51,152 bases of DNA, from positions 1-51,152 of the IMG/VR virus record IMGVR_UViG_3300044822_000018. One strand, given 5' to 3'. Position 1 is the first letter of the stretch, and every line of letters begins with the position of its first letter. The notes under the pieces were generated by a model, which was not told the origin of the DNA, searched no databases, and saw nothing but the letters and a program-made list of their open reading frames with translations. The position numbers and the translations under genes were made by a program. Shown here piece after piece: positions 1-51,152 of this stretch. Source of the DNA: a virus (Duplodnaviria; Caudoviricetes).

Positions 1-127
1 GGCTTTAATTTCTTCGGCTGTTTCAGCCATTGTTTGCTCCTGCAAGTTTGAGTAATCTTAAACGCAGTTCACGCATAGCGTCGATGTGTCCTTGATGAAG
101 TGCAGCGTCAACATAGCAGCCGGTACG
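1..127. repeat. 127-bp terminal direct repeat (copy 1), indicating a circular contig
   Basis: 1-127 is identical to 51026-51152; ORF 23..256 runs across the join into the scaffold gene start. Confidence 0.97.
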
Positions 128-256
128 CGCGGCTTTCGCGACTAAATCTTGCCTATCTTCGACAATTTCGTGCATAACTTTTTCAACAAACTGCCAAGTT
201 TCTGAGTCTAACAAGTCGGCAAGGTCGTTTTTGTCGTCTTGAGTCATTAGGCGCAT
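23..256 (-). CDS. small conserved-position protein between portal and scaffold
   Basis: 77-aa helical ORF abutting the portal stop; its stop overlaps the scaffold ATG (ATGGCTGA) across the circle join. Confidence 0.7.
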   Translation of the reverse strand: MRLMTQDDKNDLADLLDSETWQFVEKVMHEIVEDRQDLVAKAARTGCYVDAALHQGHIDAMRELRLRLLKLAGANNG

Positions 257-11100: not shown

Positions 11101-13676
11101 CGCGTGCCGTCTGAAACTGTGATTGTTCCCGAGCCCACGGTTAGAGGCATAATCTTAATCGTCGAGCCCGAAACGCTCACGTTGACGTTGTTCGCCGGTG
11201 GCGCTGTTGCCGTAAAGCTGCCCATGAAGTTGGGATCATAGATCGACACGGTTTGGCTTGGCGAGTTCGTATACGCGAACGTGACCGTCGTCGGCACGAT
11301 AGTAAGCGGGCCAGGCGTTGGCGACACGCCAGGGGTAGGCGATACGCCTGGACTGGGCGTCATGAACGGCGTGAAGCCGATGACCTGCGTCTGTTCGGTT
11401 ACGTTATAAGAATACGTCCAAGGCTGCGACGTACCGCCTGTTTGCGTGAACTGAATCGGCGCGGTTGCCGTGGTGCCGTCGAGATTAAACACCGTCAGAA
11501 CAGGCGTGCCGTTGTTTGGGTTGTAGGACGCCGGAACCGAGAACGTGACCGCCTGCGGCGCGGGCGTCGTTATGGTTGACGTGCCGATGACTTCGCGCTG
11601 AGCGTTGATATAATTCCAAAACGTCTTTTTGCCCGACGAATAATCAATGGTGGTGGACACGGTGTTTGCGGTGTTGCCGGTAAAACTGTAATACCAAACC
11701 GACGGCGTATAAGTTGTATTGGAGTCAGACAAAAGCGACGTGAAACTTTGAATCGCGACGCCCTGCGGCAAGAGCGCGTTCGATGCGCCTGACGAACAAG
11801 AGTTCTCCAAAGAATACGCCGCGAAGCCCGTCGAGCCAGGGCATAGCTGAAAATAATAGTTCGGCGCTAAGTACCCTTCGAGCATACGCTGCAAGTACAA
11901 GTGCGGCGTATACACAGTGATAGTTTGATCAGTCAGGCCACCGGCTGACACGTTGTCGCCCCAACCGCCTTCGCCCACGGCTACGGGCTTTGAGCCGTTC
12001 CAGCCGGTTAAGATCGTCTGGGACTCCGTCGAACTGGGGTCCTCAAACGTGGTATAGCATAGCTGACCGGCGAACGCCGTCGAGTGCGGACAGCCGATGT
12101 GCGGATTGTTGCCGCCTGTTGGATACCACGGATTCGTAATAGGATAGTTGTGATTGTTAAACACGTCAACCATCGGGTTTAAGTCATACCCGATGCCCGT
12201 GCATGAGCCGTAGTCGCTCAGACCAAGATTCTGCGCTTGTGTCGGCGTGCAAAAACTATACGCCCCCACGAACGCCGGTCCTAAAACTTGGACAGACGGC
12301 GCGACCGAGTGAATCAAGTCGTGAACGTGCTGACCGCGCTGTTCGTACCAGTTTTGCCACGAGCCATAATTAACGCCCAAGTTCGCCGTGCAATCATAAA
12401 TCGACGCCTGTTGATCGTCAGGCTCGTTTGGACCTAGAATAAAATACTTAATCGGCAAGTTTGGAATAGTAGCAGCGGCTGTTATAGTCGAATCCGTGTC
12501 GCACGCGCCCATGCCGACTGTCCAATCCGAATTTTCTATACTGGCGGCGGTCGCCGCGTTACCCCAGATAGTTGAGTTATCAGTCGAGTTAACGCCCGAA
12601 ACATGATGAATATTCATACTGGCAATCGCGTTCTGCCAGGACGAAGTGTTAGCGTTGTCCGTCGGAAGCTGATCGGGCCGCACGTTGACCCCCACGAGGT
12701 TCGCCACTTGCGACGCCGTGCGCTGCGTGCTGGCGGTAAAGCCCACGATGGGCGTCGGCGTTGGACCAGGGACGGCGGCGAACTGCGGCGCGAGCAGAGC
12801 CTCAAACACGAACCCGGCGTGATTCTGCGCCGCCGACGTGGTGATCGTGGGACCAATCGGCGTCACGGTGTCTTGCGTCACAAAATTCGACGTGAACGCA
12901 TAGCGCGTCGTAGGCATCGCCGCCGAATCTGAATAAAGTTTGGTTGTCCAGTTAAGCGGCGTGGTGTCTGTTTGACCCGTGGTGCCGCCCGACGTATGAA
13001 AAATAATCGGCTGAGTATACAGCGCATTGGGCGTAAGTTGCGGCGGCGTAACCGTCGTGCCTGTCGTCGCGGTCGCAAGTATGCCGTATTGATTAAACAC
13101 GCTAGAGTTCTGCACGACGTTTTGGTATTCAAGGCACTGAGCTAAAAGCGCCTTGGAGTTTGTGTTGTTCTTGGTAAACGTCGTTGTTGTGGTATCACCC
13201 GACGGTACAAAGCGATACCATATATAACCCGAATACGTCGGGTTGGTATTTAGACTCGTCAACTGCTGCCAAGTCGAGTCAGAGTTGGTGATCGTGTCTC
13301 CGGCCTCGTTGACAGTAAGCGCGCAAATTTGCAAATCGGTATTGTTCATGAAATACGTCCCGGCGTGCGGCCAGGTAACTACATCATTGGGCGACGTGAA
13401 CGTATCGGTATTAGTAACTTGCACCAGCTTAATCGCGCCTGGCGTCGCGGTCGGAACAGGCGTCGGCAGCGTCGGCACAGCCGTCGGCGTCGCTAGCATC
13501 GCAGGGTTAATTCCCGGCCCGCACAGCGTCACAGGCTGATTGTTGACGTTAAAGAGCTTCACGCAGTTAACTGTGGGAATCGCCATCGTCTGCGCCCACA
13601 AACTGCCAGGCAGGCCAGTTATTACGGCGAGAACTCCCATAAACAACAGTGCCCAAAGGCTCTTATTTATCGTCAC
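8121..13676 (-). CDS. 1851-aa exported multidomain protein (signal peptide, Pro/Thr linkers, clan GH-A-like domain, Ig-like repeats)
   Basis: Hydrophobic N-terminus ending SLWA-Q; PTP linkers; GPNEPD...NNHNY...VGEGGW; duplicated GPLTI.PT beta-domains; many paired Cys. Confidence 0.75.
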   Translation of the reverse strand: MTINKSLWALLFMGVLAVITGLPGSLWAQTMAIPTVNCVKLFNVNNQPVTLCGPGINPAMLATPTAVPTLPTPVPTATPGAIKLVQVTNTDTFTSPNDVVTWPHAGTYFMNNTDLQICALTVNEAGDTITNSDSTWQQLTSLNTNPTYSGYIWYRFVPSGDTTTTTFTKNNTNSKALLAQCLEYQNVVQNSSVFNQYGILATATTGTTVTPPQLTPNALYTQPIIFHTSGGTTGQTDTTPLNWTTKLYSDSAAMPTTRYAFTSNFVTQDTVTPIGPTITTSAAQNHAGFVFEALLAPQFAAVPGPTPTPIVGFTASTQRTASQVANLVGVNVRPDQLPTDNANTSSWQNAIASMNIHHVSGVNSTDNSTIWGNAATAASIENSDWTVGMGACDTDSTITAAATIPNLPIKYFILGPNEPDDQQASIYDCTANLGVNYGSWQNWYEQRGQHVHDLIHSVAPSVQVLGPAFVGAYSFCTPTQAQNLGLSDYGSCTGIGYDLNPMVDVFNNHNYPITNPWYPTGGNNPHIGCPHSTAFAGQLCYTTFEDPSSTESQTILTGWNGSKPVAVGEGGWGDNVSAGGLTDQTITVYTPHLYLQRMLEGYLAPNYYFQLCPGSTGFAAYSLENSCSSGASNALLPQGVAIQSFTSLLSDSNTTYTPSVWYYSFTGNTANTVSTTIDYSSGKKTFWNYINAQREVIGTSTITTPAPQAVTFSVPASYNPNNGTPVLTVFNLDGTTATAPIQFTQTGGTSQPWTYSYNVTEQTQVIGFTPFMTPSPGVSPTPGVSPTPGPLTIVPTTVTFAYTNSPSQTVSIYDPNFMGSFTATAPPANNVNVSVSGSTIKIMPLTVGSGTITVSDGTRTTPLPYTVSATPPPSPTPPPVGTIAITAQSFAHSSSNSLDLTTLTGGVGATGYCWANWGQSAGSSTVNGFDTKTTCNGIISTYTAIGPSLFYGAYGPPPTITWDTGDGQPDSANTGGISSQVVTSGVGNGFSFVVNKGTPNYTTKNTLNFVLGAYCANVQITAQTSDTAPAPIATNAAYVDNGVGSSELYNIKYSTTSASSYLTITVKDVANPCAAGATSSVGLGFAYFVPGATPAPPTQPPSTPGPLTISPTSITFSGPTAAPTTVAISDPNNSAAFSFNIPQSGIVNGSITGSSATGTLTLTPQASGTVVVTIYDGSGHSVDLPVTVQVPTPVPSPTPIYTNAAPFGGLYYTPNPYITSLPTTPPGITVIFSTKCTSTANGSSAVSMSVFDIDLGICNGTVNPQGSTGTHAYNVTTNAQAGPSASQNGLTALQTYTIAMTQDSGTTGNLTYYICLFQQTCSAYTAPSAAFSFSGLAFNIGVASDQVSRKAVADIWGVQVFPTAIPTTYLQALANAAVVDPYPSPTAAPSTTPNPNYPGTDSITGYAEPQWPNALAMTQRVNTAGIANNIKSYSASAMSNYTGSTYSSYSGCSGCVAGWQASKGLAVSAVPGTSQPGFSGFYYAKSTDPTYTFNCFTNSETSSYCGFTTGISNLHVPAGATTEAADGIGSCDCHLIVIEPVGWKPSSTNGTGWPTIASPYQYEIVIENAGYGSSQSAAASCTSQENGGTSTTSCTTFNNTSNTGYISGLGAAIYSTGGPAWTSGTSNNNSGYYPIPGSIPNPAYDSGGSSTTFPGNGQHGAVGLSAMIITANDILTNKAIKHETYMFLDCAQASQSDVWPAISTNTDTNCQSRRGFTGLSYGDHLVLNRTPAQICNVTPGPGTTCTSGDAVSYGFNHPLQVMYAISLATYGAVVTDTMSYGPAFGTFVRDSDPTWSTVASNYGLSTTSFAGHTDYVVNFGLPLNYMNAYFKAVNACIIPGAPGYTGTSATC

Positions 13677-14913: not shown

Positions 14914-15047
14914 ACGTACACAACGCTGTGAGCGACTACGCGGAAGAACCGGCGATATTGCACGATGCGCTTTGCGAGATGGTTGACGGTTCGCCTTCGT
15001 GCAGTTGCGAAGTGATACCCGATGATTGGGCCCAGTTTTATGAGTGA
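14910..15047 (+). CDS. 45-aa acidic micro-protein (not in ORF track)
   Basis: MNVHNAVSDYAEEPAILHDALCEMVDGSPSCSCEVIPDDWAQFYE*; GGAGG RBS; overlaps the next ATG. Confidence 0.55.
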   Translation: MNVHNAVSDYAEEPAILHDALCEMVDGSPSCSCEVIPDDWAQFYE

Positions 15048-16557
15048 CACAATTACCGAATGGCGGCTTGGTAAGAAGCACGGTAACACCTACGAACATC
15101 GTGTGACGTTGACTCAATTAGGGTTTCGCTTTGATGGCGAAACAAAAGAATGGGTTACTTGGAACGAAGAACAGTTCGCGCAGGGTTACTTCTTAGTGAC
15201 CGGCCAACCCTATTCGGCCCGCACAGACGGGCAGAAAGATGGAGAAGTGAACGCAACCGAAAGCGAAATTGATTTAACTGGTAACGGACGCGGCTTTACC
15301 GACCCGCAATTAAATGCGGCGTTAAAGGCGTTAGGCGGTGGCTCGGTCGGGTTTGACTATGCCCGCGTATCCAAAGCCGGGCGTATCGCATACGGCGTTG
15401 AGAAGTATGGCTCGGACGCCCTAATGCGGGCCATTCGGTTCGTCATCGAAACCGAAGCCAAAGAAGGCCCAGAAGCGCCGCGCAAGCCTTCGCAGGCAGA
15501 TCGGCTCAACGAGCTAGGCAAGGCTCCTGTAGCGCCTGCGAAGGCCCCAAGTGAGGCTCCGCCTGTTCCGCCCGCCGACGACGTGACTTCGGCGGTAGCG
15601 GCATTGCGCAAGCTCATGGGAACGGGCGTGCTGGACGAAGCCCGCGTCCGAGCTATTGCCGACGAGGCGGTGAAAGACGGCGTCGGTGCCTTCGCTCAAG
15701 TCATCGACGATGCGGTAAAGGCCGCCGTCGGTCGGCCCAAGATTCTGGAAGTAAGGTCGCCGGGCGCGACTGTTCAAGTTAAGGGCGCACATCGTGACTT
15801 TGAGCGGGTTATGAAGTGTGTCGGCGCGGGGTTAAACGTGCTGATGACCGGGCCTAGCGGTTGCGGCAAAAGCGTAATAGCCAAACACGTCGCGCAAGGG
15901 TTAAATCGTCCGTTTCATTCAGAGTCTTTCTCCGGTGGCAAGACCGAATCGGCAATTACTGCCCGCCTGTTGCCAAGCAAAGGCGGGGACTTCATTCCCG
16001 TTGATAGTCAATGGCTCCACGCTTACGCGAATGGCTATGTCATCTTCGCCGACGAGTTAGACGCTGCCGATGCGAACGTCTGGATAGTCGCAAACGAGAT
16101 GCTTGGCTCAGACGGGTTTCATTGCGAGATTCGGGCTATCGGCAAAGATGGCACCGCCCGTGACGAGGCTGTTTGGGTTAAACGGCATCCCAACACGGTC
16201 TTGATTGGCGCAATGAATACGTTCGGCACAGGGCCGAACATGATGTTCCAAGGCCGTAACGCACTAGACGCAGCATCGTTAGATCGGTGGTTGTTGCTCG
16301 AAGTTAGCTATGACGAGGCTATCGACCGTGCTTACGAAGTTGACGATCAAACGCGCAATTTTGTAAACTGGGTCCTCGCTGCCCGTAAAATCGTTCTTGA
16401 ACGTGGCATGAAGCGCGTGGTGAGTCACCGGATGACGGCCAAAGGTTGCGCGCTTCTTGCTGCGGGATTCAAGCAAAAAGAAGTTCGCGAGATGCTTCTC
16501 GTCGGTTGGACGAAAGACGAAGTACTCCAAGTCAAAGACGCGGATACTCAAAGCTAA
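15040..16557 (+). CDS. MoxR/CbbQ/CobS-like AAA+ ATPase
   Basis: Walker A GPSGCGKS, Walker B IFADELD, RHPN..LIGAMNT, LDAASLDRW; small N-terminal GNTY..LGFRFDGETKEW domain. Confidence 0.85.
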   Translation: MSDTITEWRLGKKHGNTYEHRVTLTQLGFRFDGETKEWVTWNEEQFAQGYFLVTGQPYSARTDGQKDGEVNATESEIDLTGNGRGFTDPQLNAALKALGGGSVGFDYARVSKAGRIAYGVEKYGSDALMRAIRFVIETEAKEGPEAPRKPSQADRLNELGKAPVAPAKAPSEAPPVPPADDVTSAVAALRKLMGTGVLDEARVRAIADEAVKDGVGAFAQVIDDAVKAAVGRPKILEVRSPGATVQVKGAHRDFERVMKCVGAGLNVLMTGPSGCGKSVIAKHVAQGLNRPFHSESFSGGKTESAITARLLPSKGGDFIPVDSQWLHAYANGYVIFADELDAADANVWIVANEMLGSDGFHCEIRAIGKDGTARDEAVWVKRHPNTVLIGAMNTFGTGPNMMFQGRNALDAASLDRWLLLEVSYDEAIDRAYEVDDQTRNFVNWVLAARKIVLERGMKRVVSHRMTAKGCALLAAGFKQKEVREMLLVGWTKDEVLQVKDADTQS

Positions 16558-17420
16558 TGGCTAAGGCTAAAAAGCTAGTTTTTAATTATGACTCTTACGC
16601 TGCCGTGGTGGATGCGACTCTGCATCCACCCTCGGTAGCCGCTAGTAACAAAGCCGATTGGCAAAAGCGGGTCAACGGTGGTGACCCGGACAATTGCAGA
16701 GCCAAGTGGTATGGTTGGAACAATACCAAGGTGCCCGCCATCGACAAGTTAGCGGACTTTTTTCTAGTCAAAGGCTGGGATGCGGGCGTTAAAAAGATGC
16801 GCGCTTGCATGAACCAAATCAAAGCGCCAGAAGTTATGAGCGTTCGTCGCCGCCAAACTTGGCGCGAAGAAGGCGCAGAATTGTCCCGCGAACGGTTATA
16901 CGCGGGTTACGAGCAATTCTGGCGTGGTCGCGTCACGCAAGGCGTCAACATTCCCAAGCGCATACGTTTGGTGTTTGACGTTTGCGTAAATAGCGCCGTC
17001 ATGTCAGAAGACATGTTTTGGGTAGGTGCTGCGGGTGTGACGTTGGCCGAGGCACTAACCGAAGCCGGTCATTCGGTTGAGTTAGTCGCTTCGGTTCTTA
17101 TTTCAGACTACGCAACCGATACAACCTACAGAGTTAACACGATAGTCAAAGCCTTCGACCAACCGTTTAACTATTCGACGACGCTGGCTATTACGGGTCA
17201 TGCCGCGTACTTCCGGCAAGTTATACTCTGCCATCAACGGGCGTATACGCCTACTTTGTGGGCCGGTTGCGGTTCGCCGAGGCGGTTTTCTATAGATCGC
17301 GTAGATTCGACAGGTGTCGAGCAAATCTTAATCTCTCACATGACTAGCGCCGAACAGGCAAACAGTTATGTGGCCGAGACTATAGCCGAGTTAGAAACTC
17401 CGGCCAATGCGTTCGCGTAA
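16557..17420 (+). CDS. VWA-like partner of the AAA+ ATPase
   Basis: TAATG coupling; IRLVFDVCVNS...LAEALTEAGHSVEL resembles a degenerate VWA fold. Confidence 0.6.
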   Translation: MAKAKKLVFNYDSYAAVVDATLHPPSVAASNKADWQKRVNGGDPDNCRAKWYGWNNTKVPAIDKLADFFLVKGWDAGVKKMRACMNQIKAPEVMSVRRRQTWREEGAELSRERLYAGYEQFWRGRVTQGVNIPKRIRLVFDVCVNSAVMSEDMFWVGAAGVTLAEALTEAGHSVELVASVLISDYATDTTYRVNTIVKAFDQPFNYSTTLAITGHAAYFRQVILCHQRAYTPTLWAGCGSPRRFSIDRVDSTGVEQILISHMTSAEQANSYVAETIAELETPANAFA

Positions 17421-17651: not shown

Positions 17652-19349
17652 TTGCAAGCAGAAAATAATCTTAACCGCCGTAGCGCGCAGATAAATCTCG
17701 CGCAATATCCGACAGATTGTTTGCTAACTAGAGTCTTGCCCGGAGTCAAGCAGCCAACAGCCAAAAAAGGCGAACAGGTAATTTATACGCCTGTTAAAGA
17801 GTTTGTCTTGGGTTTTGGCGAGAATTGCGGGCTGGGTTTAGCAGGCAAGTTTATATGCGTTGACATAGATCGGCCTGCTGATCCTGTAGCAGCCGAATAT
17901 TCGGCGCGTCTGCCTGTTACGTATACTGTCAAGACGCCTAGAGGCTGGCACTATTTGTTTCGTGTTCCGTCGGGTTGGACCGGCGCGAAGAAAAAAATCG
18001 CCTGTGGCGAGATTCTCACGTCGGGCTATATCGTGGGACCCGGAAGCTGGATTGAGCCGACTGAAGGGCATCCTGGGGGCGAATACCGGCTCGTAAACTT
18101 CTGCGATCCCGTGCCCGCCCCCGATTGGCTCTTAGACTTAGCGCGGCGTGACCCGGAGCCTAGTTTAGACGTAACGCGGACGGGGACGGAGCGCGACCGC
18201 ATCCTCGATGGTGAGCGCGACGATGCGTTGACGGCACTCGCCGGTTCGATGCGCCGCCAGGGCTATAGCGAAGATGCGATGCGCGCCATGTTGAGCGCCA
18301 TCGTTGAGAGCGGCGTCGTCGAGCAGCCGCCTGGGCGCGAGGTGACCGAGCGCGACGTAGCGCGCATCGCGCGTTCGATGGCGCAGCATCAAACAGGCGG
18401 CAGCACAGTTCCCGAGATTGCACTGTTGCCCGACAAGTGGACGACCGGCGCAGACGTATCGCGTGATTTTGAAAAACTAGAATGGGTCTTGCCAGGGTTT
18501 ATCCCGGCTGTTGGTTTAACCGTGTTATACGGCGATGGCAAGATCGGTAAAAGCTCTTGGGCGTCGTGGCTTGCGTCAGCCGTATCGCGGACAGGCAAAA
18601 AAGTCATCATGGTCCCGTCAGGCGAAGAAACTTTTAAGCAATTTGTTCAACGTGCTAGACTTACTGACTGTGAAGATTCCCTGTTTGTCTGTTGGCCTGG
18701 CGAAGCGCGCTTTGTTTTGCCCAAGTCCGTGCGTGAATTAAATCATGCAATAGAACTGCTCAAAGACGTAGGTTTAATTTACATAGATGCGTTGTACTCT
18801 CACTTTGGGGACACTCCGGGATTACACGCCGGAGAACGTGCGCGCTATAATTTGCAGGCTTTGGCGCAACTTGCGTTAGACCGACGTATCGCGGTACTTG
18901 GCACGATCCACGAAAACGCCTCGGGCGGCCTGTTGGGTTCGCGCGAGATGCGAAACGTAGCGCGCAGCTTGATTCATGCCAAACGCAAACCCGGAGGCGA
19001 CTTCACAATATGGTCGGACGGTTCCAATGGCTTTTCTAGCGATTTCGGTGTTAGTTTTCCAGGTGTTGCTGTGCCTGTCCTGGATAGTAATAATCGGCCT
19101 GTTGTGTTTACTGACTTATTTGGTCAGAATCATCCGCAAGCTGTGTGGGTTCTCAGACTTGGCGAAAAAATCGGTGCCCCCGATACTATAACAGTTGACG
19201 ACATCTCTAAAACGCCTGTTGAGTTAATCCGCGAATATTTAATCTTAAATCCCGGCGCAAGCAACGCCCAGATCGCCGACGCTCTGAGCATGGGCAAGTC
19301 CACTGTCGATAGGCACGCGCGCGAGGCTAGGTCTACGCTTGCTAACTAA
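17652..19349 (+). CDS. bifunctional primase-polymerase fused to PriCT and RecA-type (AAA_25-like) helicase
   Basis: CVDID, KTPRGWHYLF, GYIVGPGS (Prim-Pol); GERDDALTALAG (PriCT); YGDGKIGKS Walker A; C-terminal HTH. Confidence 0.88.
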   Translation: MQAENNLNRRSAQINLAQYPTDCLLTRVLPGVKQPTAKKGEQVIYTPVKEFVLGFGENCGLGLAGKFICVDIDRPADPVAAEYSARLPVTYTVKTPRGWHYLFRVPSGWTGAKKKIACGEILTSGYIVGPGSWIEPTEGHPGGEYRLVNFCDPVPAPDWLLDLARRDPEPSLDVTRTGTERDRILDGERDDALTALAGSMRRQGYSEDAMRAMLSAIVESGVVEQPPGREVTERDVARIARSMAQHQTGGSTVPEIALLPDKWTTGADVSRDFEKLEWVLPGFIPAVGLTVLYGDGKIGKSSWASWLASAVSRTGKKVIMVPSGEETFKQFVQRARLTDCEDSLFVCWPGEARFVLPKSVRELNHAIELLKDVGLIYIDALYSHFGDTPGLHAGERARYNLQALAQLALDRRIAVLGTIHENASGGLLGSREMRNVARSLIHAKRKPGGDFTIWSDGSNGFSSDFGVSFPGVAVPVLDSNNRPVVFTDLFGQNHPQAVWVLRLGEKIGAPDTITVDDISKTPVELIREYLILNPGASNAQIADALSMGKSTVDRHAREARSTLAN

Positions 19350-19930: not shown

Positions 19931-20355
19931 TGGACGAGAAAGCAGGCGAAGATGCGGAGCGGTCGGTGAGCGACCTGCATAGTCCGGTCGTTTACCTGGA
20001 AGAAGCGCGTCACGTGCTGCGCAACATCCGCAAGGCGCTTCAAGTCCCCGAAGCAGAATCGATTACGGAATATGCGCGCTTGCACTTTGCGCGCTCCGTC
20101 GTCGCGTGTGACATCTACAACATCATGGACTCGATGCCGGAGGGTGTCGGCGAGGCGTTCATCCGCGACCGCATCATGGCCGCGCTCGCGAAGTTCCCTG
20201 CTCGGAACGCGGGAAGCGTGACCCCGGTCGTCATTGACGGCGCAACGTACAATCGCGTTGACGACGCACGTAAAACTCTCGAACAGCGGCTTCAAGAACT
20301 CGCCGACGCCTGTTCTTTGCCCGATGTTGAGCCGCAGGCCGAAGAACAAGCATGA
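19930..20355 (+). CDS. hypothetical protein
   Basis: 141 aa, TAATG and ATGA coupling. Confidence 0.7.
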   Translation: MDEKAGEDAERSVSDLHSPVVYLEEARHVLRNIRKALQVPEAESITEYARLHFARSVVACDIYNIMDSMPEGVGEAFIRDRIMAALAKFPARNAGSVTPVVIDGATYNRVDDARKTLEQRLQELADACSLPDVEPQAEEQA

Positions 20356-21752
20356 CGCCGAACTATCCGCATCAAGACTACGAGATTAAAAACTTCGGGC
20401 GCGCACCAAAGCGCGCCCTTTTTTGGTCGCCGCGAACAGGCAAGACACGCGCTGCGATACAGAGCGCACTCGAAGCTCGCGTCTATGACTTGCTTGTGAT
20501 AGCGCCGCTGTCAACGTGCCCTCAATGGGCCACCGCGCTCGAAGAGCATGGCCTGCCGGTCGTGCGCGGCTATGCCATGAATCGCGGACCGTTGCTCGCG
20601 GCCTTGCGTAAGCGCACAGGCGTCGTCGTGCTGTCCTGGCGACGCATCTCGGCCAAGAACCCCGAAGATCGCAAGCGCGGACGCCCAAGCAGCATCGCAG
20701 AAAGATTACTTGCCTGCAACTTTACTGGTATAATATGCGACGAATCGCACAACATGGCGAGCCCTAGCGCCGATCAAGCAAGATTAGCCAGGCGCTTGTG
20801 CTGGCAAGCTCCGTGGGTTCGCCTGTTAACAGGCACACCGGCAGCGAATCACTATGGCTCTTTGTGGGGGCAACTAAGCGCCTTAGACAAAGACGCATTT
20901 GGCGGAAGCTATGAAAAATTTGCTCAGAGATACTTGGTTCGCGATACGATGTTCCCTTCGCGTGTTCTCGGCCATTTACCGACTGTCGAGAACGAACTGC
21001 GGCCAAAAATGCTCCCATACATATCTATCGTCAGACGGGATGATGTTTTCGGGCCAGATAAATACGAAGAAAACGTCAGAATCGTGGATTTACCCCCCAA
21101 CGCTATTAGAATATATCGAACGCTTGCGACAAAGTGGTTGATCGACGACCTGTTGCAAGTTGACGCTACGCAAATACTCAAGCGCCTTGTGCGTTTGCAA
21201 CAGGTAGCAGCAGGCTTCGTCAAAGACGATGACGGCTTTATTCACAACCTGCATACGGCAAAAATCGACGCCGTGACCGAAGATTTAGCTAAGATCACCG
21301 AGAGCGACGAAAAAGCCGTCGTCTTTCACAGGTTTAGATGGGAAGGCGAACAGTTAATCAAGCGCGCCAAAACTCTAGGGGTGCCAGTCTATGAGATTAA
21401 CGGCGATACGCCTGTCGCCGAGCGCAGTATTTGCCTGTCAGAGATGGCAAAACCAGGCGCTAAGATCGCTGTCGTGCAAACCAAGTCTGGCGGAGTTGGT
21501 ATTAGTTTTGCAGAAGTACCGTACCAGTTGGTACTCTCTCAGTCTTTCAGTTTTACAGACGAAGAACAGGCACATGATCGCACATATAAGCCGCACACCG
21601 CGCGCTTTGTGACGTATTACAGAACTAGCGGAACCGTTGACGAATTTATCGCATCGGTGCTAAAATCCAAGCAGAGTTTGCGCACCGCCGTAACGCGCGC
21701 AGATTTAGAAGCGATGGCGTTCGGCACAATCAAAAAGATGAGGATGAAGTGA
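20352..21752 (+). CDS. SNF2-like SF2 helicase
   Basis: SPRTGKT, ICDESH, LLTGTP, SGGVGISF, EQAHDR. Confidence 0.9.
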   Translation: MTPNYPHQDYEIKNFGRAPKRALFWSPRTGKTRAAIQSALEARVYDLLVIAPLSTCPQWATALEEHGLPVVRGYAMNRGPLLAALRKRTGVVVLSWRRISAKNPEDRKRGRPSSIAERLLACNFTGIICDESHNMASPSADQARLARRLCWQAPWVRLLTGTPAANHYGSLWGQLSALDKDAFGGSYEKFAQRYLVRDTMFPSRVLGHLPTVENELRPKMLPYISIVRRDDVFGPDKYEENVRIVDLPPNAIRIYRTLATKWLIDDLLQVDATQILKRLVRLQQVAAGFVKDDDGFIHNLHTAKIDAVTEDLAKITESDEKAVVFHRFRWEGEQLIKRAKTLGVPVYEINGDTPVAERSICLSEMAKPGAKIAVVQTKSGGVGISFAEVPYQLVLSQSFSFTDEEQAHDRTYKPHTARFVTYYRTSGTVDEFIASVLKSKQSLRTAVTRADLEAMAFGTIKKMRMK

Positions 21753-22971: not shown

Positions 22972-23318
22972 TGGATAGCCACGTTGACATAGCCTTTCGT
23001 AACCCTATACCCGCGCCTGTTCCACATCGCGCTCAACTGTTGCGTGATGCGACTTATGCTATACAGCTTTACGATGCGGCTAACTCAGCGCAACACGCGC
23101 GAAATCCTAACTGGCATGAGTTTGATCCGGTCTATAAGCCTGTTTCTCATAGCGGCGAACTAGGCTACGCCGCAGGGTTTTTGTGTGTCGATGCGGCTTT
23201 ACATGGTGCGATCAACTTGCTACACTTAGGCCCCAAAGCACACAACGCCGCTGATATATGGATGGCAACGCAGAGTGCAACAGGCATACTCAATACCAAT
23301 TCCAACAGACTCAAGTAA
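22968..23318 (+). CDS. hypothetical protein
   Basis: 116 aa, ATGA overlap, GGAGG upstream. Confidence 0.6.
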   Translation: MMDSHVDIAFRNPIPAPVPHRAQLLRDATYAIQLYDAANSAQHARNPNWHEFDPVYKPVSHSGELGYAAGFLCVDAALHGAINLLHLGPKAHNAADIWMATQSATGILNTNSNRLK

Positions 23319-25527
23319 CTGCACAGTTTGCCCAAGACACGCGAAATGCGCCTCGCCGGAGCTTGTTTCGAACGGCAACAGACGCGCGAAGGTCATGGTC
23401 GTAGGGCCAGGGCCTTCTTCGCGTGACGATACGCTAGGCGCGGCGTTCTCTGACTCGTCGGGACGCCTCTTGCGCGCGATGTTGGCCGACGCTGGGTTTG
23501 AGCTCGATGACGTGTTTTACTCGAACGCGGTGCGCTGCGGCGGTAAGCCGCCGACGCCGAGCGAAATAGACGCCTGTAGACCCTGGTTGGCCGCCGACAT
23601 AGCCGAAGTACAGCCGCAGGCGATCATCGCGCTTGGCGACCCTGCGCTGCGCGCTCTAACGAAGCTCTCGGGCCTTCAGACTAAGCGCGGTTCCTCGTAT
23701 AAGCTACACGCGAGTCTGAGCCCGCACACGTCCGAAGAAATCGTCTGGCCGACGTACTCACCGGCCTACGTCGCGATGTATCCGCAAGCGCGCCACACGG
23801 TTGTCGCAGACCTGCGCCGCGTTCGGGACAGAACCAAACAGGCAGAAGAAATACCTTGGGAATGGTGGGACGGTGCTGCGCTACCGCCAGGGCCTTACGG
23901 TTTTGACATAGAGACAGATTGGGACCGCAAGACTAAAACAGGCGGCGACAATATGATTCAATGCGCCGTTGCTGTGTCTAATCGCGTGTTTGTCGCATAC
24001 GGCCCAGAACAGGCAAAGCTCTTAGCACAACAATTAACAGGCGAGGTTTACACGTTAAATGGCTGGAAATTCGACAACCCAAAATGTCGGGCACTTGGAA
24101 TTGCCGTTCCGCATGGTGTGGACGTTATGGGAATGGCGTATTTGGATGACGAAACGCAACCCTTGGGACTCGAATCGCTCGCAGTTAAATATTTGGGCGT
24201 CCGGGGATGGAAGGACTTGCGTGACGCTGAACCTGGTACTGATGAGTTTGCCCTTTACAACGCGAAAGATAGTTATTACACTCTATTGCTTGCGCTTAAA
24301 CTCCGAAATGTCCTGGGAAAACGGACAGCCTTAATCACGCACGTTATGTCACCGGCCAGGCTTGCGCTCGACGCTTGTACGGAGAGAGGAGTACCGCTAA
24401 ATGCTGGAGCCATACAGCGAGCAAGAGATTCTTACGTCGCCGCCTTACATAGCGAACATGATGAGGTTATACAACTTGCATGTGCAAGCGGCTACACAGA
24501 ACACAACCCTAACAGTACCGCCGAAGTCGGAGCAATACTTACGGCGCGGGGAATACACCTTTCACATACGCCCTCCGGCAAACTCGCAACAGGTAAAGGC
24601 GTGTTGCAGGAGGCCGGGGGAGATGCGTATGCTGCTGCGCTACTTTCATATCGTGAGGCTCGCAAGGCGCTATCCACCTATGTGGAACCGTATGAGCGGG
24701 CAATTCAAAGTACGGGCCGCGTTCACCCGGAGTACACCATCTGGCGGACTGTTACGAATCGTACGAGTGCGCGTAATCCGAACGTCCAAAACTTGCCCAG
24801 AAACCTCAAAGATTTCTTCAACGTCACTAGCGTTGATTACTCAGCTATTGAGTTCCGCCTTGCAGCGTGGTGCGCCGGAGAAACCGGCATCCTGCGACGT
24901 TTTGCCGAAAACCCGGCGTGGGACCCGCACCGTTACTTCGCGGCGCTTTTTTACAACAAGCCAGAGAGTGAAGTTACAAAGAGCGAAAGGCAAGTGGCTA
25001 AGTCCGCTAACTTTTCGCAACTCTACATGGGAAACGGCGATACTCTGCAAGCGTACGCCGGGAAGATGGGCATCGTATTGGACAGCCGAACGTGTCACGA
25101 CATTCATCATAGATGGCATGCCACGTTCCCCGCGTTCCGTCATTTCTACCAGCAAACCCTGGTGGAACTTATGGAGTGCGGCTATGTCGAAACGGCCACG
25201 GGCTATCGGCGGCATTATGGTGACTTCCGCGCTCTACCGCCAATTAGGCGAACTGCAGCGTTACGAGAGTGCGTTAATGTCAAAGTCCAAACTCTAGCGG
25301 CGCACGTCGCGCTGATCGGCCTGGCCGAATGTCACAGGCAAGGTTTGCCTGTTTGCGGATTCATTCACGACGCGAATCTTTTTGACTTCAAGACTAAGCG
25401 AGAAGCCCTTGACGCGATGCCGTTAATTGAGTATTGTATGATTACGCATCCGGTAAAAGTCTTGCGTGAACACTTTAACGTAAATCTCGATGTTCCCTTG
25501 ATTGTGGAGGCGACATTCGCGGCGTGA
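23275..25527 (+). CDS. polA: family-A DNA polymerase with N-terminal family-4 UDG-like domain and 3'-5' exonuclease
   Basis: UDG-like CTVC..GPGPS..NAVRC..DAC..TYSPAY; exonuclease FDIETD, NGWKFD, YNAKD; polymerase motifs DYSAIEFR, RQVAKSANFSQLY, IHD. Confidence 0.92.
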   Translation: MQQAYSIPIPTDSSNCTVCPRHAKCASPELVSNGNRRAKVMVVGPGPSSRDDTLGAAFSDSSGRLLRAMLADAGFELDDVFYSNAVRCGGKPPTPSEIDACRPWLAADIAEVQPQAIIALGDPALRALTKLSGLQTKRGSSYKLHASLSPHTSEEIVWPTYSPAYVAMYPQARHTVVADLRRVRDRTKQAEEIPWEWWDGAALPPGPYGFDIETDWDRKTKTGGDNMIQCAVAVSNRVFVAYGPEQAKLLAQQLTGEVYTLNGWKFDNPKCRALGIAVPHGVDVMGMAYLDDETQPLGLESLAVKYLGVRGWKDLRDAEPGTDEFALYNAKDSYYTLLLALKLRNVLGKRTALITHVMSPARLALDACTERGVPLNAGAIQRARDSYVAALHSEHDEVIQLACASGYTEHNPNSTAEVGAILTARGIHLSHTPSGKLATGKGVLQEAGGDAYAAALLSYREARKALSTYVEPYERAIQSTGRVHPEYTIWRTVTNRTSARNPNVQNLPRNLKDFFNVTSVDYSAIEFRLAAWCAGETGILRRFAENPAWDPHRYFAALFYNKPESEVTKSERQVAKSANFSQLYMGNGDTLQAYAGKMGIVLDSRTCHDIHHRWHATFPAFRHFYQQTLVELMECGYVETATGYRRHYGDFRALPPIRRTAALRECVNVKVQTLAAHVALIGLAECHRQGLPVCGFIHDANLFDFKTKREALDAMPLIEYCMITHPVKVLREHFNVNLDVPLIVEATFAA

Positions 25528-26004: not shown

Positions 26005-26045
26005 AAAACCCCTTGACGGTTTAAGAGTGCCGTCAAGGGGTTTTT
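26005..26045 (+). terminator. intrinsic terminator (possibly bidirectional)
   Basis: AAAACCCCTTGACGG-loop-CCGTCAAGGGGTTTTT. Confidence 0.85.
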
Positions 26046-26047
26046 GT

Positions 26048-26076
26048 TTGACACTTTTGTAATTTTATGGTATCAT
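26048..26076 (+). promoter_or_regulatory. sigma70 promoter with extended -10
   Basis: TTGACA-17 nt-TATCAT preceded by TG; AGGAGG RBS follows. Confidence 0.85.
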
Positions 26077-26091
26077 TGGGCAGGAGGATAT

Positions 26092-26937
26092 ATGAACGAT
26101 TTTGTTATTAGTGCGTCCGCTCTAAGCGCGTTCAAGCGTTGCCCGAAAAGCTATTACTTCGGCTACGAACAGGCGCTAACAGTCATCGAACAAAAAGAGG
26201 CTCTAACCAACGGCATCGACTTTCACACGTATGCCGCCGACTATGCGATCTATCGGCGCGATGGCGTGGAGCCTGACTTCGGCAAGTACGACAACGACAA
26301 GATGTACGAAGTATTCAACGCATGGGTTAGGCATCGCGGCGCGACAGAGTTTGACAACATGGCCGAGATTTTGCACGTCGAAGAACCCATGTTCACCGAA
26401 CTGTTGCCCGGCGTTCAACTCCGCACGACGTTAGACTTAGTTTATCGCGACAAAAACGGCTGGATCGTAATTCGCGACTACAAGACGTTCGCAAAGATGC
26501 CGTCGCTCGACGCTAGTCTCGATTTTCAAGCGCGCATTTACATCGCTGCGATCATGCGTAAGTACCAGACTGAAAACGTCAAGTTTGAACACGTCTACGT
26601 TCGGCGCGACCTGTTCCACGAAGGCAAACAGTCTCACGTCGCCTGGACGCCCGAAGAATCTTACGTCTACGAAGAAATCGTTATCCCGCGCGCCGAGGCC
26701 GATCGGCTCTGGAAAGAAACGCAATACGTGGCGGGTATTATTCTAGACGCAACAGGTACGAACATCTTTTACAGAGTTGACCTTAAAGGCACGTCGCCGT
26801 TTACGTGCGGGTCGTGCTTTTACAAGACGGTCTGTGCAGCCGAGAATCAGAACGGCGGCATGGATGGCCTAGACCTCGAAGAACTAGACTATCGCGTCAA
26901 CAGAAACGAGCGCAATCAACAAGAGATACCAGCATGA
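26092..26937 (+). CDS. PD-(D/E)xK Cas4/RecB-like exonuclease
   Basis: SASALSAFKRCPK, LDLVY, IRDYKT, QARIY, CGSCFYKTVC; ATG after AGGAGG. Confidence 0.88.
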   Translation: MNDFVISASALSAFKRCPKSYYFGYEQALTVIEQKEALTNGIDFHTYAADYAIYRRDGVEPDFGKYDNDKMYEVFNAWVRHRGATEFDNMAEILHVEEPMFTELLPGVQLRTTLDLVYRDKNGWIVIRDYKTFAKMPSLDASLDFQARIYIAAIMRKYQTENVKFEHVYVRRDLFHEGKQSHVAWTPEESYVYEEIVIPRAEADRLWKETQYVAGIILDATGTNIFYRVDLKGTSPFTCGSCFYKTVCAAENQNGGMDGLDLEELDYRVNRNERNQQEIPA

Positions 26938-27230
26938 ACGACGACACGATCCGCGTAAAGAACGCGCTTGCGCTCAAACTCGCGCTTGAAAATGCGTACC
27001 ACGCGCAACCCGACGTTACCGAGATATACGACTTGGTGAACTGCGCTTTTGACGCCCTCATCGCAGCCACGCCGCAAGAACAGCCGCCCGAGATTAGTCC
27101 ATGTGACGATTGTGGTTACTGCAATAATCCAACTTCGCCCGAGGCGCACAATCACGGGCCTTGCTTCAACTGCTACTGCCCTTCACATAAAGCCCATTAT
27201 ATAGCGCCCGAGAGCGAGGCAAAGCCATGA
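26934..27230 (+). CDS. Cys-rich hypothetical protein
   Basis: MNDDTIRV...CDDCGYC...CFNCYC; ATGA overlaps. Confidence 0.6.
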   Translation: MNDDTIRVKNALALKLALENAYHAQPDVTEIYDLVNCAFDALIAATPQEQPPEISPCDDCGYCNNPTSPEAHNHGPCFNCYCPSHKAHYIAPESEAKP

Positions 27231-27505
27231 ACGACGAACAGGCTATTTTTAGACGCAGACCTGTTTGGCGCTGTGTAAACTGCTCGCATTTAAGTCTACG
27301 TGTTGACGAAAGTCAACTGTGCGACGCCTGTTCTGCCAGGGCCAATTTACTGCGCGGAATAAAATGCTCGCTGCTCTTGATCGCGATGTACGTGTCCGTC
27401 ATCGTCGGACTACTCAATTTAGACACTGGCGTAGTGACGTTGTTTTGTGCTATGATTTTTGGCATGAGCGTAATATATTTTAACTCACTACTCACACACA
27501 AATGA
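27227..27505 (+). CDS. zinc-finger membrane protein
   Basis: CVNC...CDAC followed by two hydrophobic segments. Confidence 0.6.
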   Translation: MNDEQAIFRRRPVWRCVNCSHLSLRVDESQLCDACSARANLLRGIKCSLLLIAMYVSVIVGLLNLDTGVVTLFCAMIFGMSVIYFNSLLTHK

Positions 27506-28290
27506 TCTACTTGCTCGACGCCGATCAGAACGGCTCAGACTCGATTCAGCACCTTGTTGACTCCGGCAAAATTAAATACTTGCCTATGTCAACTTTTCAA
27601 GTGTTCGACAAAACAGTTAAAGAACTGTTGCCTGTTGTGGGACCTGATGACTTAGTCATCATCGACACAATAGGCTCGCTTTTTGAAACTACGCGAGGGG
27701 ACGCAAAACTTGGAACTGACGTATCGGTTGACCTATGGACGCTACGGGGAAAGTACCTAGACGGGGACAAGAACTATCTCACCGTCTACTCTTTGGCAGG
27801 TGATACGATTATACGTCGGATTAAAAATCTCAGGGCAAGGGGTGCGAGAATTATTACTACGTCGCATGAGTCCGAGAAACAAGACCCTACGGACTTGATG
27901 AAAAAGCGCGCACCGGCTCTGAGTGACGCGCTCTATAAGTCAATCATGGCGAACACGTCCGACGTTGTGCGCCTGTCGGAAATTATCGACCCAATCTTAA
28001 ACGAGGATGGTAGTGTCAAGGTACCGAGTGGGACACGAATCTTACAACTCCGTAAAACGGAGGAAGCCGTCGCTAAGTACCACGTCTTGCCGGAGGTTTC
28101 TGACCGAATCAAAAGGTTATTGCGACTACCTTCGAGAAGTGGTTTGTATACTTACTACGCGCATGTCCAAAAACGTCCAACCTGGTTACACATATACGGA
28201 CCGCCAGGAGTAGGTAAAACCGCGCTTTCTGCTTCAGAAGCCGAAACTCCAAACCCACAACACACAACACCAAATCAAGAAAGCGACTAA
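27502..28290 (+). CDS. Sak4/AAA_24-like P-loop ATPase, apparently circularly permuted
   Basis: N-terminal YLLDAD, Walker B LVIIDTIG, IITTSHE; Walker A HIYGPPGVGKT at the C-terminus; lies between Cas4-like and SSB-like genes. Confidence 0.75.
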   Translation: MIYLLDADQNGSDSIQHLVDSGKIKYLPMSTFQVFDKTVKELLPVVGPDDLVIIDTIGSLFETTRGDAKLGTDVSVDLWTLRGKYLDGDKNYLTVYSLAGDTIIRRIKNLRARGARIITTSHESEKQDPTDLMKKRAPALSDALYKSIMANTSDVVRLSEIIDPILNEDGSVKVPSGTRILQLRKTEEAVAKYHVLPEVSDRIKRLLRLPSRSGLYTYYAHVQKRPTWLHIYGPPGVGKTALSASEAETPNPQHTTPNQESD

Positions 28291-28291
28291 C

Positions 28292-28819
28292 ATGGCCGAA
28301 GAAATGTTCACAGTAGACGAAATCACGATCATCAACGAACAAGTGCCTGTTGGTGATTACAAAGCGCGCTTGGTCGATGCAACCGGCGAGCTTTCCAAGA
28401 GCAAACAAAAGCCCACGGTCTACGCGACCTGGGAAATCGTGGCGGGCGAACACGAAGGCAAAGAAACCCGCTCGTTCTACTCTCTAGCCGTGACGCGCAA
28501 ACAAAACAAGAAAGGCGTCATGCAGACCTACGCGGGCGGCATCGCCGACTACACCGCCGCGATGCGCCTCGTAAAGCCGCAATTCAACGGAACCTGGCCG
28601 GTCAACCCGACGCTCGAACTGGCCGAACAAGCCGCCGTTGGCTTCAAGAAGGCGTTCTCGGGCAAGGTCGTTAATCTCAAAGTCATGCCGAATAACTACA
28701 CCGATGATTCGGGCCAAGCTGTCAACGGAACGCGCGTCAAAGTCATCGGGACAGGCGGCGGTGTGCCTGTTGCTGCTGCCGCAGTTAAAAGCGGCGTAGA
28801 TATGTTCGACGATCTATGA
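28292..28819 (+). CDS. phage ssDNA-binding protein (DUF669-like)
   Basis: VPVGDYKARL...WEIVAGEHEGK; acidic aromatic tail DMFDDL. Confidence 0.7.
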   Translation: MAEEMFTVDEITIINEQVPVGDYKARLVDATGELSKSKQKPTVYATWEIVAGEHEGKETRSFYSLAVTRKQNKKGVMQTYAGGIADYTAAMRLVKPQFNGTWPVNPTLELAEQAAVGFKKAFSGKVVNLKVMPNNYTDDSGQAVNGTRVKVIGTGGGVPVAAAAVKSGVDMFDDL

Positions 28820-29172
28820 CCGAAGCGCAGTTAAAAACCGGGCTTTGTGCAAAACTAAAGGCCGCTTACCCAGCGGCCTTCTTTTTTAGAACAGGAGCGG
28901 GCGCGTTCGCGATGGCAGGTTTGCCGGATATTATAGGCATCGTGTTTGGCCGGTTTGTCGGCATCGAGGCTAAACGGCCAGGCAAATACTCAACACCCTT
29001 AAAAGGCTGTACGCCAGCACAGCTTCATGTGCGCGATTTAATCTTTCGCGCAGGCGGCATTTGGCTGGCGACAGACGACATTGACGACTGTTTAGTTAGA
29101 CTCAAAAAAGCGTTGTACTCGTGTGGCGCGTCTGTCAACGATGAAGAAAAAACGCCAATAGGATCGTTGTAA
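28816..29172 (+). CDS. VRR-NUC nuclease / Holliday junction resolvase
   Basis: MTEAQL...GLPDI...FVGIEAKRP...TPAQ. Confidence 0.85.
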   Translation: MTEAQLKTGLCAKLKAAYPAAFFFRTGAGAFAMAGLPDIIGIVFGRFVGIEAKRPGKYSTPLKGCTPAQLHVRDLIFRAGGIWLATDDIDDCLVRLKKALYSCGASVNDEEKTPIGSL

Positions 29173-50293: not shown

Positions 50294-51055
50294 CTAGTAG
50301 CCGTAATCGGCGTTGACTTCAGATTCGATGGCTTCAACGTCCTCGTCTGTTAGCGAACCGCGCCGTTTCATCGTGGCGATGAGTTGGTTCAAGCCTTCGT
50401 CTTTTTGCAGGTCGGGATTAGCGAAGATGGCCCCCTCGGGGCGCTTGCCGAGCGCGCGGCGTCCTGGGGCACCGCCGCCGCCCATCTGAGGCGGTTCGGG
50501 CTTTGGCGCGCTCGCAGCGGCCTTGCGGTAGAGCCCAGCGGCGGCGGCGTCCCAGCGTAGGTTTAACTGGCGCTGGCGCTGGTTGGCGGGCAATTGCAGC
50601 AAGGCGCGCACGTCAATGTCGGACAGTTCTTTGCGAAAAATGGGCTCGATCTTCGAGAACATCACATCCTGACCGGATTTTTGCGTGATAAAATTCTCAA
50701 CAAATAAATCGCCCGACGTTTGCATATAGGGATTTGCGTGTTGAGCAAACTCCTCCATGCGCTCGTTTGTCATCATTTCGGCAAGGTTCATCATCGCCGC
50801 CGTAGGATTGGCCGCGATCTGAAGGTCTAATTGGGCGCGCTGTTCGGGCGTCAGCATCGCCAACTGTTGCTTGAGCGTCATTTTGGGCGGCGGCGCAGGC
50901 GCTTGAACTTGACGCGCGCCAAATGTCTCGGCCAGGCCGCGCGCGACGGCTTCGGCGATGGCGGCGCTGTTATCTACCGGCGCGGCGACAGGCGGTTTTT
51001 CTTCGTCTTTGATTTCGTCTAAAGCGGCTTTAATTTCTTCGGCTGTTTCAGCCAT
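50294..51055 (-). CDS. scaffolding protein (putative)
   Basis: Helical, acidic, P/G-rich linker before C-terminal helix; AGGAG RBS before MAETAEE; between portal and capsid. Confidence 0.65.
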   Translation of the reverse strand: MAETAEEIKAALDEIKDEEKPPVAAPVDNSAAIAEAVARGLAETFGARQVQAPAPPPKMTLKQQLAMLTPEQRAQLDLQIAANPTAAMMNLAEMMTNERMEEFAQHANPYMQTSGDLFVENFITQKSGQDVMFSKIEPIFRKELSDIDVRALLQLPANQRQRQLNLRWDAAAAGLYRKAAASAPKPEPPQMGGGGAPGRRALGKRPEGAIFANPDLQKDEGLNQLIATMKRRGSLTDEDVEAIESEVNADYGY

Positions 51056-51152
51056 TGTTTGCTCCTGCAAGTTTGAGTAATCTTAAACGCAGTTCACGCA
51101 TAGCGTCGATGTGTCCTTGATGAAGTGCAGCGTCAACATAGCAGCCGGTACG
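51026..51152. repeat. 127-bp terminal direct repeat (copy 2)
   Basis: Identical to 1-127. Confidence 0.97.

Follow-up and report, generated by a model that had tools for sequence, protein, structure and literature searches.

We analyzed the full record IMGVR_UViG_3300044822_000018, a complete-looking phage sequence of 51,152 bases (the window), and found that the product of its gene at 27502..28290 is a true circular permutant, fixed in evolution, of the phage ATPases of the Sak4/AAA_24 ("core-only RecA") type. In canonical members of this family, the first strand (beta1), the ATP-binding P-loop (Walker A), and the following helix (alpha1) are N-terminal. Here they are C-terminal, and the protein begins at the second strand instead. 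The explanation that best accounts for all of our results is a fixed permutant that originated by tandem duplication, that packs its C-terminal strand in cis, and that functions like Sak4; we put the probability of this combined explanation at about 80%.

The gene and the elements of its product are listed below. Counts out of 124 refer to an alignment of 124 full-length permuted members, which we used for all of the conservation counts, and "model" refers to a predicted structure that is described further on.

27502..28290, + strand: gene for the permuted Sak4/AAA_24-like ATPase, an open reading frame (ORF) with an ATG start, 262 amino acids plus the stop codon
27502..27525, + strand: new N-terminus, MIYLLDAD (residues 1-8), which is the canonical strand beta2 (alignment to the family profile; model strand 2-6)
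27652..27669, + strand: Walker B strand LVIIDT, residues 51-56 (D55 in 124/124; model strand 51-55)
27847..27870, + strand: strand RIITTSHE, residues 116-123, with the H122-E123 motif (model strand 116-127)
28129..28173, + strand: helix that is the canonical AAA_24 C-terminal helix, residues 210-224, running into beta1 (model helix 214-222)
28183..28221, + strand: relocated beta1 and Walker A, WLHIYGPPGVGKT, residues 228-240 (AAA_24 profile, conservation, model strand 228-233)
28222..28287, + strand: short helix alpha1, which ends near residue 247, followed by a variable tail (model helix 239-247)

The protein matches Pfam's AAA_24 family with 37.6 bits (the cut-off is 27; E = 2.6e-9), and in this alignment residues 25-192 correspond to positions 46-192 of the 195-position profile. 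It also matches PHROG 124, the family of Sak4-like annealing proteins for single-stranded DNA (ssDNA), with E = 1.4e-16. At 262 residues, it lacks the extra domains of RecA and Rad51. When we ran the hidden Markov model (HMM) for AAA_24 against the DNA, nucleotides 27571-28077 matched profile positions 45-192 and nucleotides 28189-28236 matched positions 6-21, all in one frame. So, within the ORF at 27502-28290, positions 45-192 precede positions 6-21, which departs from the canonical order of the AAA_24 motifs. The relocated element with its P-loop, WLHIYGPPGVGKTALSAS, comprises residues 228-245 and lies inside the last 35 residues. The initial annotation, which was made from the sequence alone, had placed the start of the protein at the second strand, had recognized Walker B and the RIITTSHE strand, and had located Walker A in the last ~35 residues; all of these assignments agree with ours.

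At the new N-terminus, positions 5-6 onward of the permuted family's HMM align with the canonical residues directly past alpha1. Residue 8 occupies the acidic site in the D-x-E motif of canonical proteins, and it is aspartate in 95/124 sequences and glutamate in 22/124 (aspartate or glutamate in 117 of 118 non-gap rows). The aspartate is found in the main permuted clade; the glutamate past beta2 is found in the distant permuted members and in the canonical relatives that we inspected.

For comparison, we used eight natural AAA_24 proteins with N-terminal P-loops (P0144-P0151). An HMM of the 124 permuted sequences matches all eight of them as two pieces whose order is swapped. HMM positions 216-251 pair with the canonical N-terminal segment (beta1, Walker A, and alpha1), with domain E values of 7e-10 to 6e-5, and the remainder of each canonical protein aligns within HMM positions 5-225. 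In P0146, for instance, residues 46-69 and then 73-276 are aligned, which places the new termini within the short loop between alpha1 and beta2. At the other end, the last residues of P0144 (up to 282 of 283) align up to permuted-profile position 224, in the helix before beta1. The canonical proteins also have a K-P-S/P leader directly before beta1 that resembles the linker of the permuted proteins, in which about five residues (K-x-P-S/T, with P226 in 115/124) separate the C-terminal helix from beta1. Together, the end of P0144 and the K-P-S/P leader indicate that the old C-terminus has been joined to the old N-terminus.

The closest canonical relatives that we found are P0144-P0146, with full-sequence E values of 1.7e-32 to 2.3e-22 against the permuted HMM. 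The LIYGPPGVGKT element and the C-terminal helix are common to these proteins and the permuted family. Unlike the permuted family, they follow the normal order: about 25-45 residues of N-terminal leader precede beta1, and the chain stops right past the helix that continues into beta1 in permuted proteins. As a control, we considered AAA_24 matches in 401 bacterial genomes from one class: all 34 matches, from 23 genomes, begin at profile positions 2-5. Leaving out genome G143, which is flagged as unpublished and has two matches, gives 32 matches in 22 genomes, all of them canonical.

The permuted order is shared by a deep family. A word-indexed search gave 62 clusters of proteins 243-321 residues long, with identities of 37-100% and a coverage of 91% or more. 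When 1.84 billion representatives were searched exhaustively with phmmer, 84 proteins were found at E ≤ 1e-3 (56 at 1e-10 and 31 at 1e-30), and nearly all of these are colinear with our protein over about residues 1-245. The initial annotation had suggested a search for homologs with the same order, and we scored 139 fetched relatives, down to ~21% identity, by a strict rule ([AG]xxxxGK[ST] within the last 65 residues). Walker A is near the C-terminal end in 129 of the 139. The ten exceptions are four proteins with a serine instead of the first glycine, at the same position, one fragment of 96 residues with the motif at its end, two fragments without the C-terminal part, and the three giant repeat proteins described below. 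We found no real N-terminal P-loop among the 139 relatives. P0138 has an N-terminal match to the motif that overlaps the beta2 strand, which we read as chance.

We rejected three giant proteins (P0107, P0114, and P0129; 1,974-3,384 amino acids) as spurious members of the family. These are repeat proteins with about 10 bits per repeat, and 6-13 weak repeat matches to query residues 130-179 or 39-90 add up to significance, so whole-sequence E values can be inflated by repeats.

Within the alignment of 124 members, D55, G238, and K239 are invariant, and G11, H122, E123, P138, R157, R179, P210, P226, Y232, G233, and T240 are each kept in at least 90% of the sequences (H122 in 122/124 and E123 in 113/124). 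We also compared codons. Relative to locus L012, codons 226-247 include 9 identical, 10 synonymous, and 3 non-synonymous codons, and synonymous changes outnumber non-synonymous changes against the six closest of ten related loci. By these comparisons, the C-terminal segment is under purifying selection. Most relatives begin at the same M-I-Y. The homolog in L012 (L012:135-947), which is the closest metagenomic homolog (71% identity), is intact and begins I-L-Y. Where the family's conserved start falls, it has no ATG, GTG, or TTG; translation may begin at an unusual codon or one codon further upstream.

We are nearly certain that the permutation is real and conserved. Judging by these alignments, more than 100 proteins from uncultured phages form a family that is fixed in the permuted order. 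The proposal in the initial annotation that this is a natural circular permutation is borne out by the two swapped pieces, by the order kept across the deep family, and by a predicted structure with one confident domain.

We found no members in 50,697 GenBank phage records (using tblastn with the protein as the query) or in the species-representative bacterial genomes that we scanned. A scan of viral contigs yielded one true relative (L003) and one match to the P-loop only. Another scan, with alignment A2, gave six loci on genome contigs that cover just residues 165-256. We rejected these, and the two that we inspected are RarA-like and Lon-like AAA+ P-loop regions. A fold search of BFVD gave no full-length colinear counterpart among the matches listed; the best template modeling (TM) scores among the matches listed, 0.5-0.65, are to canonical phage AAA_24/RecA-like proteins. 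The ESM Atlas contained AAA_24 phage clusters only, with no structure for the permuted protein. None of the sequencing runs listed for the sequence is RNA.

We ran AlphaFold2 on an alignment of 23 sequences. The model has one domain, with a mean predicted local distance difference test (pLDDT) of 91.3 and a predicted TM score (pTM) of 0.89. Its elements include strands at 2-6, 51-55, 116-127, and 228-233 and helices at 214-222 and 239-247. The blocks from residues 221-250, which cover the strand at 228-233 and the helix at 239-247, average 93-97 in pLDDT, and the two final blocks, in the tail, average 62 and 38. (Among the relatives, the tail past GK[ST] has 5 to 60 residues.) A model of the monomer was another of the suggested checks, and it gives a single confident domain that includes the C-terminal strand and the P-loop.

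The best match to the model among solved structures is Sak4 from phage 52A (8rc5_1A; Z = 13.6, with a root-mean-square deviation (rmsd) of 2.6 Å over 169 residues). In this alignment, model residues 1..224 lie on chain residues 50..257 (sequential aligners cover 1..224). The Walker A residues of phage 52A Sak4 are given as K41 and T42 (PMC11846896). Because the aligned chain starts at residue 50, just beyond K41 and T42, residue 1 of the model corresponds to the position just past alpha1 of Sak4. The cores of RAD51, DMC1, and RadA (starting at residues 144-156) and RecA (starting at residue 89) match with Z = 8.7-10.2. The matches begin at 156 in RAD51 and at 89 in RecA, which is past their Walker A helix. 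The confidence values, the short conserved linker, and the homology all suggest cis packing, with the C-terminal strand in the beta1 slot. We also tried a mean-field coupling analysis (124 sequences; effective number of sequences, 111), which was dominated by gap-linked columns and gave no signal on the packing of beta1.

Alternatively, as the initial annotation had also considered in proposing a P-loop donated in trans, beta1 and Walker A could be swapped into the neighboring protomer, so that a complete ATP site would form only in an oligomer or filament. RecA-family ATP sites are at protomer interfaces; in the filaments of phage 52A Sak4, ATP-gamma-S is reported to be contacted by residues of two protomers (PMC11846896); and a terminal strand and helix is the type of element that can swap between chains. 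However, the AlphaFold monomer packs this element with high confidence (pLDDT of 93-97, pTM of 0.89). Also, just about five conserved residues (including P226) separate the helix at 214-222 from the strand at 228-233, which fits a tight connection in cis, and a permutation that arises by duplication and fusion does not require any swap. Complementation in trans therefore seems unlikely to us. A broader possibility is that the permutation has a function of its own: the ATP site might form only once the chain is complete, or only when the C-terminal strand, loop, and helix are exchanged between protomers. We give this idea little credence as well. If it were true, then filament assembly and ATP binding would be obligatorily coupled, and the result would be a domain-swapped RecA-type filament without any known counterpart.

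How might the permutant have arisen? The junction of the old C-terminus with the old N-terminus is what a duplication, a fusion, and the loss of both outer parts would leave. We propose that a canonical gene was tandemly duplicated and fused in frame, that the first copy would then have lost the region from beta1 to alpha1, and that the second copy would have lost everything past alpha1. A phmmer search without any restriction on length did not find a double-length intermediate.

To place the permuted proteins among their canonical relatives, we built trees from the core only, with beta1, the P-loop, and alpha1 removed. The canonical sequences come from a further search, word-limited and centered on eight seeds, that had given 123 canonical relatives; they are not a census. 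With FastTree, a single branch (support of 99) splits 130 permuted cores from 124 canonical cores, which corresponds to 1 change of order. With an IQ-TREE mixture model, 44 permuted rows and 42 canonical ones gave a tree that needs two changes. The tree that keeps the permuted rows together has a log-likelihood that is 23.5 above that of the free IQ-TREE tree (p = 0.824 by the approximately unbiased (AU) test), so within these sampled sequences, a single origin of the permutation is favored.

The C-terminal P-loop might instead be a captured piece (the 5' end) of some unrelated AAA+ gene, which would make the protein a chimera. When we searched the sequences in the PDB with the family's profile, the top hits were AAA+ proteins of the VCP/Cdc48 type, whose matches span beta1, the helix that precedes it, and GPPGxGKT (profile positions 200-246) with a full-sequence E of 1.5e-7, yet each of their domains has just 14-18 bits. 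Similarly, the genome scan yielded only the RarA-like and Lon-like P-loop segments. But short P-loop segments match many families. The canonical AAA_24 proteins share LIYGPPGVGKT(T/W)LAAS and the K-P-S/P leader with the permuted proteins (domain E of 7e-10 to 2e-8), and the helix before beta1 aligns with the C-terminal helix of canonical AAA_24 proteins and not with a foreign element. We consider a chimeric origin to be quite improbable.

It is also conceivable that the protein is a degenerate scaffold, a pseudo-ATPase that kept the fold and lost ATP hydrolysis. Most members have an aspartate instead of the canonical glutamate past beta2, as this idea might predict. On the other hand, the P-loop residues G238 and K239 and the Walker B residue D55 never vary, T/S240, H122, and E123 are kept in over 90% of the 124 sequences, and the acidic position is retained in every non-gap row except one. 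Loss of catalysis across the family is very unlikely given this conservation.

Finally, a Logan contig from run X1 (51,055 bases, labeled as a peat metagenome) matches positions 27200-28900 exactly, without a joint; X1 may be the source sample, so we view this as a separate assembly and not as an independent sample. An artefact (a mis-assembly, a frameshift, or a wrong start that hides a normal N-terminal P-loop) has only the oddness of the motif order in its favor and can be dismissed: besides the identical X1 assembly, proteins of several assembly sources (JGI, ENA, NCBI, and Logan) have the same order, most relatives share the M-I-Y start, the 20 related loci have no P-loop ORF upstream, and in one of these loci (L015) the upstream exonuclease gene directly abuts the ATPase gene. 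This agrees with the initial annotation, which had argued against a frameshift because the upstream ORF has no P-loop and overlaps the gene at ATGA, and which had raised mis-assembly as a concern.

We turn now to the gene's neighbors, which are listed below, followed by the genes of the replication block.

23275-25527, + strand: fusion of uracil-DNA glycosylase (UDG) and DNA polymerase A (PolA), at the head of the module (Pfam UDG, E = 6.9e-28, residues 33-173; DNA_pol_A, E = 3.8e-44)
26044..26937, + strand: Cas4-like PD-(D/E)XK exonuclease, with an uncertain start codon (PDDEXK_1, E = 4.4e-18; PHROG 69 exonuclease, E = 1.8e-21)
27227..27505, + strand: upstream ORF of 92 amino acids, with two CxxC pairs and a hydrophobic stretch and without a P-loop (GK[ST])
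28292..28819, + strand: DUF669-like protein with a predicted oligonucleotide-binding (OB) fold, 175 amino acids, with an acidic C-terminal tail (fold match; DUF669 hits of relatives)
28816..29172, + strand: small nuclease, 118 amino acids (PHROG 93 endonuclease, E = 9.1e-9)
15022-16557: AAA_5 (MoxR/CobS-like) ATPase, at the head of the replication block
16446-17420: DUF7192 protein
17652-19349: Prim-Pol/PriCT/AAA_25 primase-helicase
20352-21752: SNF2 helicase

The module thus runs from the UDG-PolA fusion through the Cas4-like exonuclease, the permuted Sak4, and the DUF669/OB-fold protein, which resembles a protein that binds single-stranded DNA (an SSB), to the small resolvase-like nuclease. 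We checked its conservation in the set of 20 related loci, several of which are near-duplicates and many of which are short. The exonuclease is upstream of the permuted gene in 13 of the 20, the 175-residue protein is downstream in 12, and the 118-residue nuclease is present in 12. PolA is present in 6 of the 20, namely those that are long enough to include its position. The relatives of UDG-PolA in L003, L014, L027, and L029 match over the whole protein.

Just upstream of the permuted gene, the ATG at 27502-27504 overlaps the stop codon (TGA, 27503-27505) of the 92-residue ORF. This ORF has sub-threshold Pfam matches only and has no counterpart in the 20 related loci at E = 1e-3. More generally, the stretch from the exonuclease to the ATPase holds two small ORFs (26805-27230 and 27227-27505), neither of which is conserved in the 20 loci, so this spot appears to be variable.

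The protein encoded at 28292-28819 is likely to be the cognate ssDNA-binding protein of the permuted ATPase. In its family, 5 of 8 members match DUF669 in Pfam (best E = 1.3e-5), and several members end with acidic tails. We modeled it with AlphaFold2 (pLDDT of 75.7). A scan of viral contigs with this protein gave no match. Relatives of the 118-residue nuclease have sub-threshold matches to Hjc (3 of 8) or RecU (1 of 8), so the nuclease is possibly a Holliday-junction resolvase. The initial annotation had suggested that the Cas4-like and SSB-like neighbors fit a recombination module, and the PDDEXK_1 match, the DUF669 and OB-fold matches, and the resolvase-like nuclease next to them are all in keeping with this.

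Elsewhere in the window are structural and lysis genes (terminase, head-tail adaptor, major head protein, and endolysin). The PHROGs label for the gene at 15022-16557 is "porphyrin biosynthesis". The phage's largest gene, an ORF of 1,851 amino acids at 8121-13676 (- strand) in the structural region, has no match in PHROGs at E ≤ 1e-5 or in Pfam at E ≤ 1e-4. The window has an exact direct terminal repeat of 127 nucleotides (1-127 and 51026-51152), so the unit is 51,025 bases long.

What would the permuted ATPase do? Sak4 from HK620 is described as binding and annealing ssDNA in an ATP-dependent manner, with stimulation by its SSB via that protein's last six residues (PMC5928155). Another phage recombination pair is described as consisting of a DUF669 SSB with an AAA protein (PMC13687109). 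We propose that the C-terminal strand of the permuted protein takes a central place in the sheet of its own chain (in cis), which would rebuild a normal ATP site. The protein would then act like Sak4: it would bind ssDNA with ATP, form filaments, and anneal or pair strands. In this scheme, the DUF669/OB-fold protein would aid the ATPase, the upstream Cas4-like exonuclease would resect ends, and the downstream small nuclease would cut junctions. A Sak4-like function is probable, in our view.

Several points weigh against our overall explanation, or limit it. The placement of strand 228-233 in the beta1 slot is a prediction from confidence values and homology. Similarly, the function of every permuted member is a prediction. 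The aspartate instead of glutamate past beta2 in the main clade might alter catalysis. The closeness to characterized Sak4 proteins rests on profiles and on the fold, and not on sequence-level matches beyond the P-loop. Specifically, we found no pairwise similarity to HK620 Sak4 outside of the P-loop; when we used hhalign to compare the family to the single sequence of HK620 Sak4, it aligned just the P-loop, with a probability of 8%; and a sequence search of the PDB with residues 1-200 gave no meaningful match. For the putative SSB, the window's own copy has no match to DUF669 at E = 0.1, and the fold matches of its model are middling (the best is to PrgE, with Z = 8.9 and an rmsd of 4.9 Å, followed by OB-fold SSBs). 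Lastly, the canonical sequences were sampled from eight seeds, so the result for a single origin applies to that sample.

Among known systems, the nearest is the Sak4 family itself (HkaL/Sak4 of HK620 and phage 52A Sak4 (8rc5); PF13479; PHROG 124). The permuted protein has the same RecA-like, core-only fold (Z = 13.6 to 52A Sak4) and the same Walker A, Walker B, and H-E strand, and in both cases an SSB-like gene adjoins the ATPase gene in a phage recombination module. The difference is that beta1, Walker A, and alpha1 are N-terminal in Sak4 (in HK620 Sak4, Walker A is at residues 9-16). The putative two-gene pairing also resembles the "Healer" pair from a Pseudomonas phage, described as a DUF669 SSB (Gp63) and a recombinase with an AAA domain (Gp64) in a replication gene cluster (PMC13687109). 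In contrast to Healer, our ATPase is permuted and its gene precedes that of the DUF669-like protein, whose assignment comes from 5 of 8 relatives and not from the window's copy. Also, our comparison of Gp64 with the permuted protein is at the level of AAA-type proteins.

Natural permutation of P-loop proteins has been described before, in the GTPases of the YRG/YlqF-YawG and cpRAS groups, in which the P-loop (G1) comes after other motifs (PMC2430557). Those proteins are TRAFAC-class GTPases with other break points, whereas our protein is a RecA-like ATPase of the additional-strand (ASCE) type. Because the break in our protein is in the loop between alpha1 and beta2, the strand with the P-loop becomes the last element of the core. 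In full-text searches of the literature, we did not find any description of a permuted Sak4, AAA_24, or RecA-like ATPase. The uses of "circularly permuted" that we found concern GTPases, methylases, and the ends of phage genomes (PMC10853773 concerns methylases only). What is new is the order of the chain, which is fixed in a sizeable family from uncultured phages; its fold, its family, and its probable function were known already.

The permuted protein probably functions as an ordinary phage recombinase, so the interest of this family is structural and evolutionary, and we do not view it as a new biological system. Its compact module (exonuclease, annealase, SSB, and resolvase) is of the kind that is mined for recombineering tools. 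For annotation, rules about motif order or checks for an N-terminal P-loop would label these permuted proteins as truncated. For engineering, the family also indicates sites at which a RecA-like protein can be split or permuted. Most broadly, a RecA-type core tolerates having its central P-loop strand synthesized last, which bears on how such domains fold.

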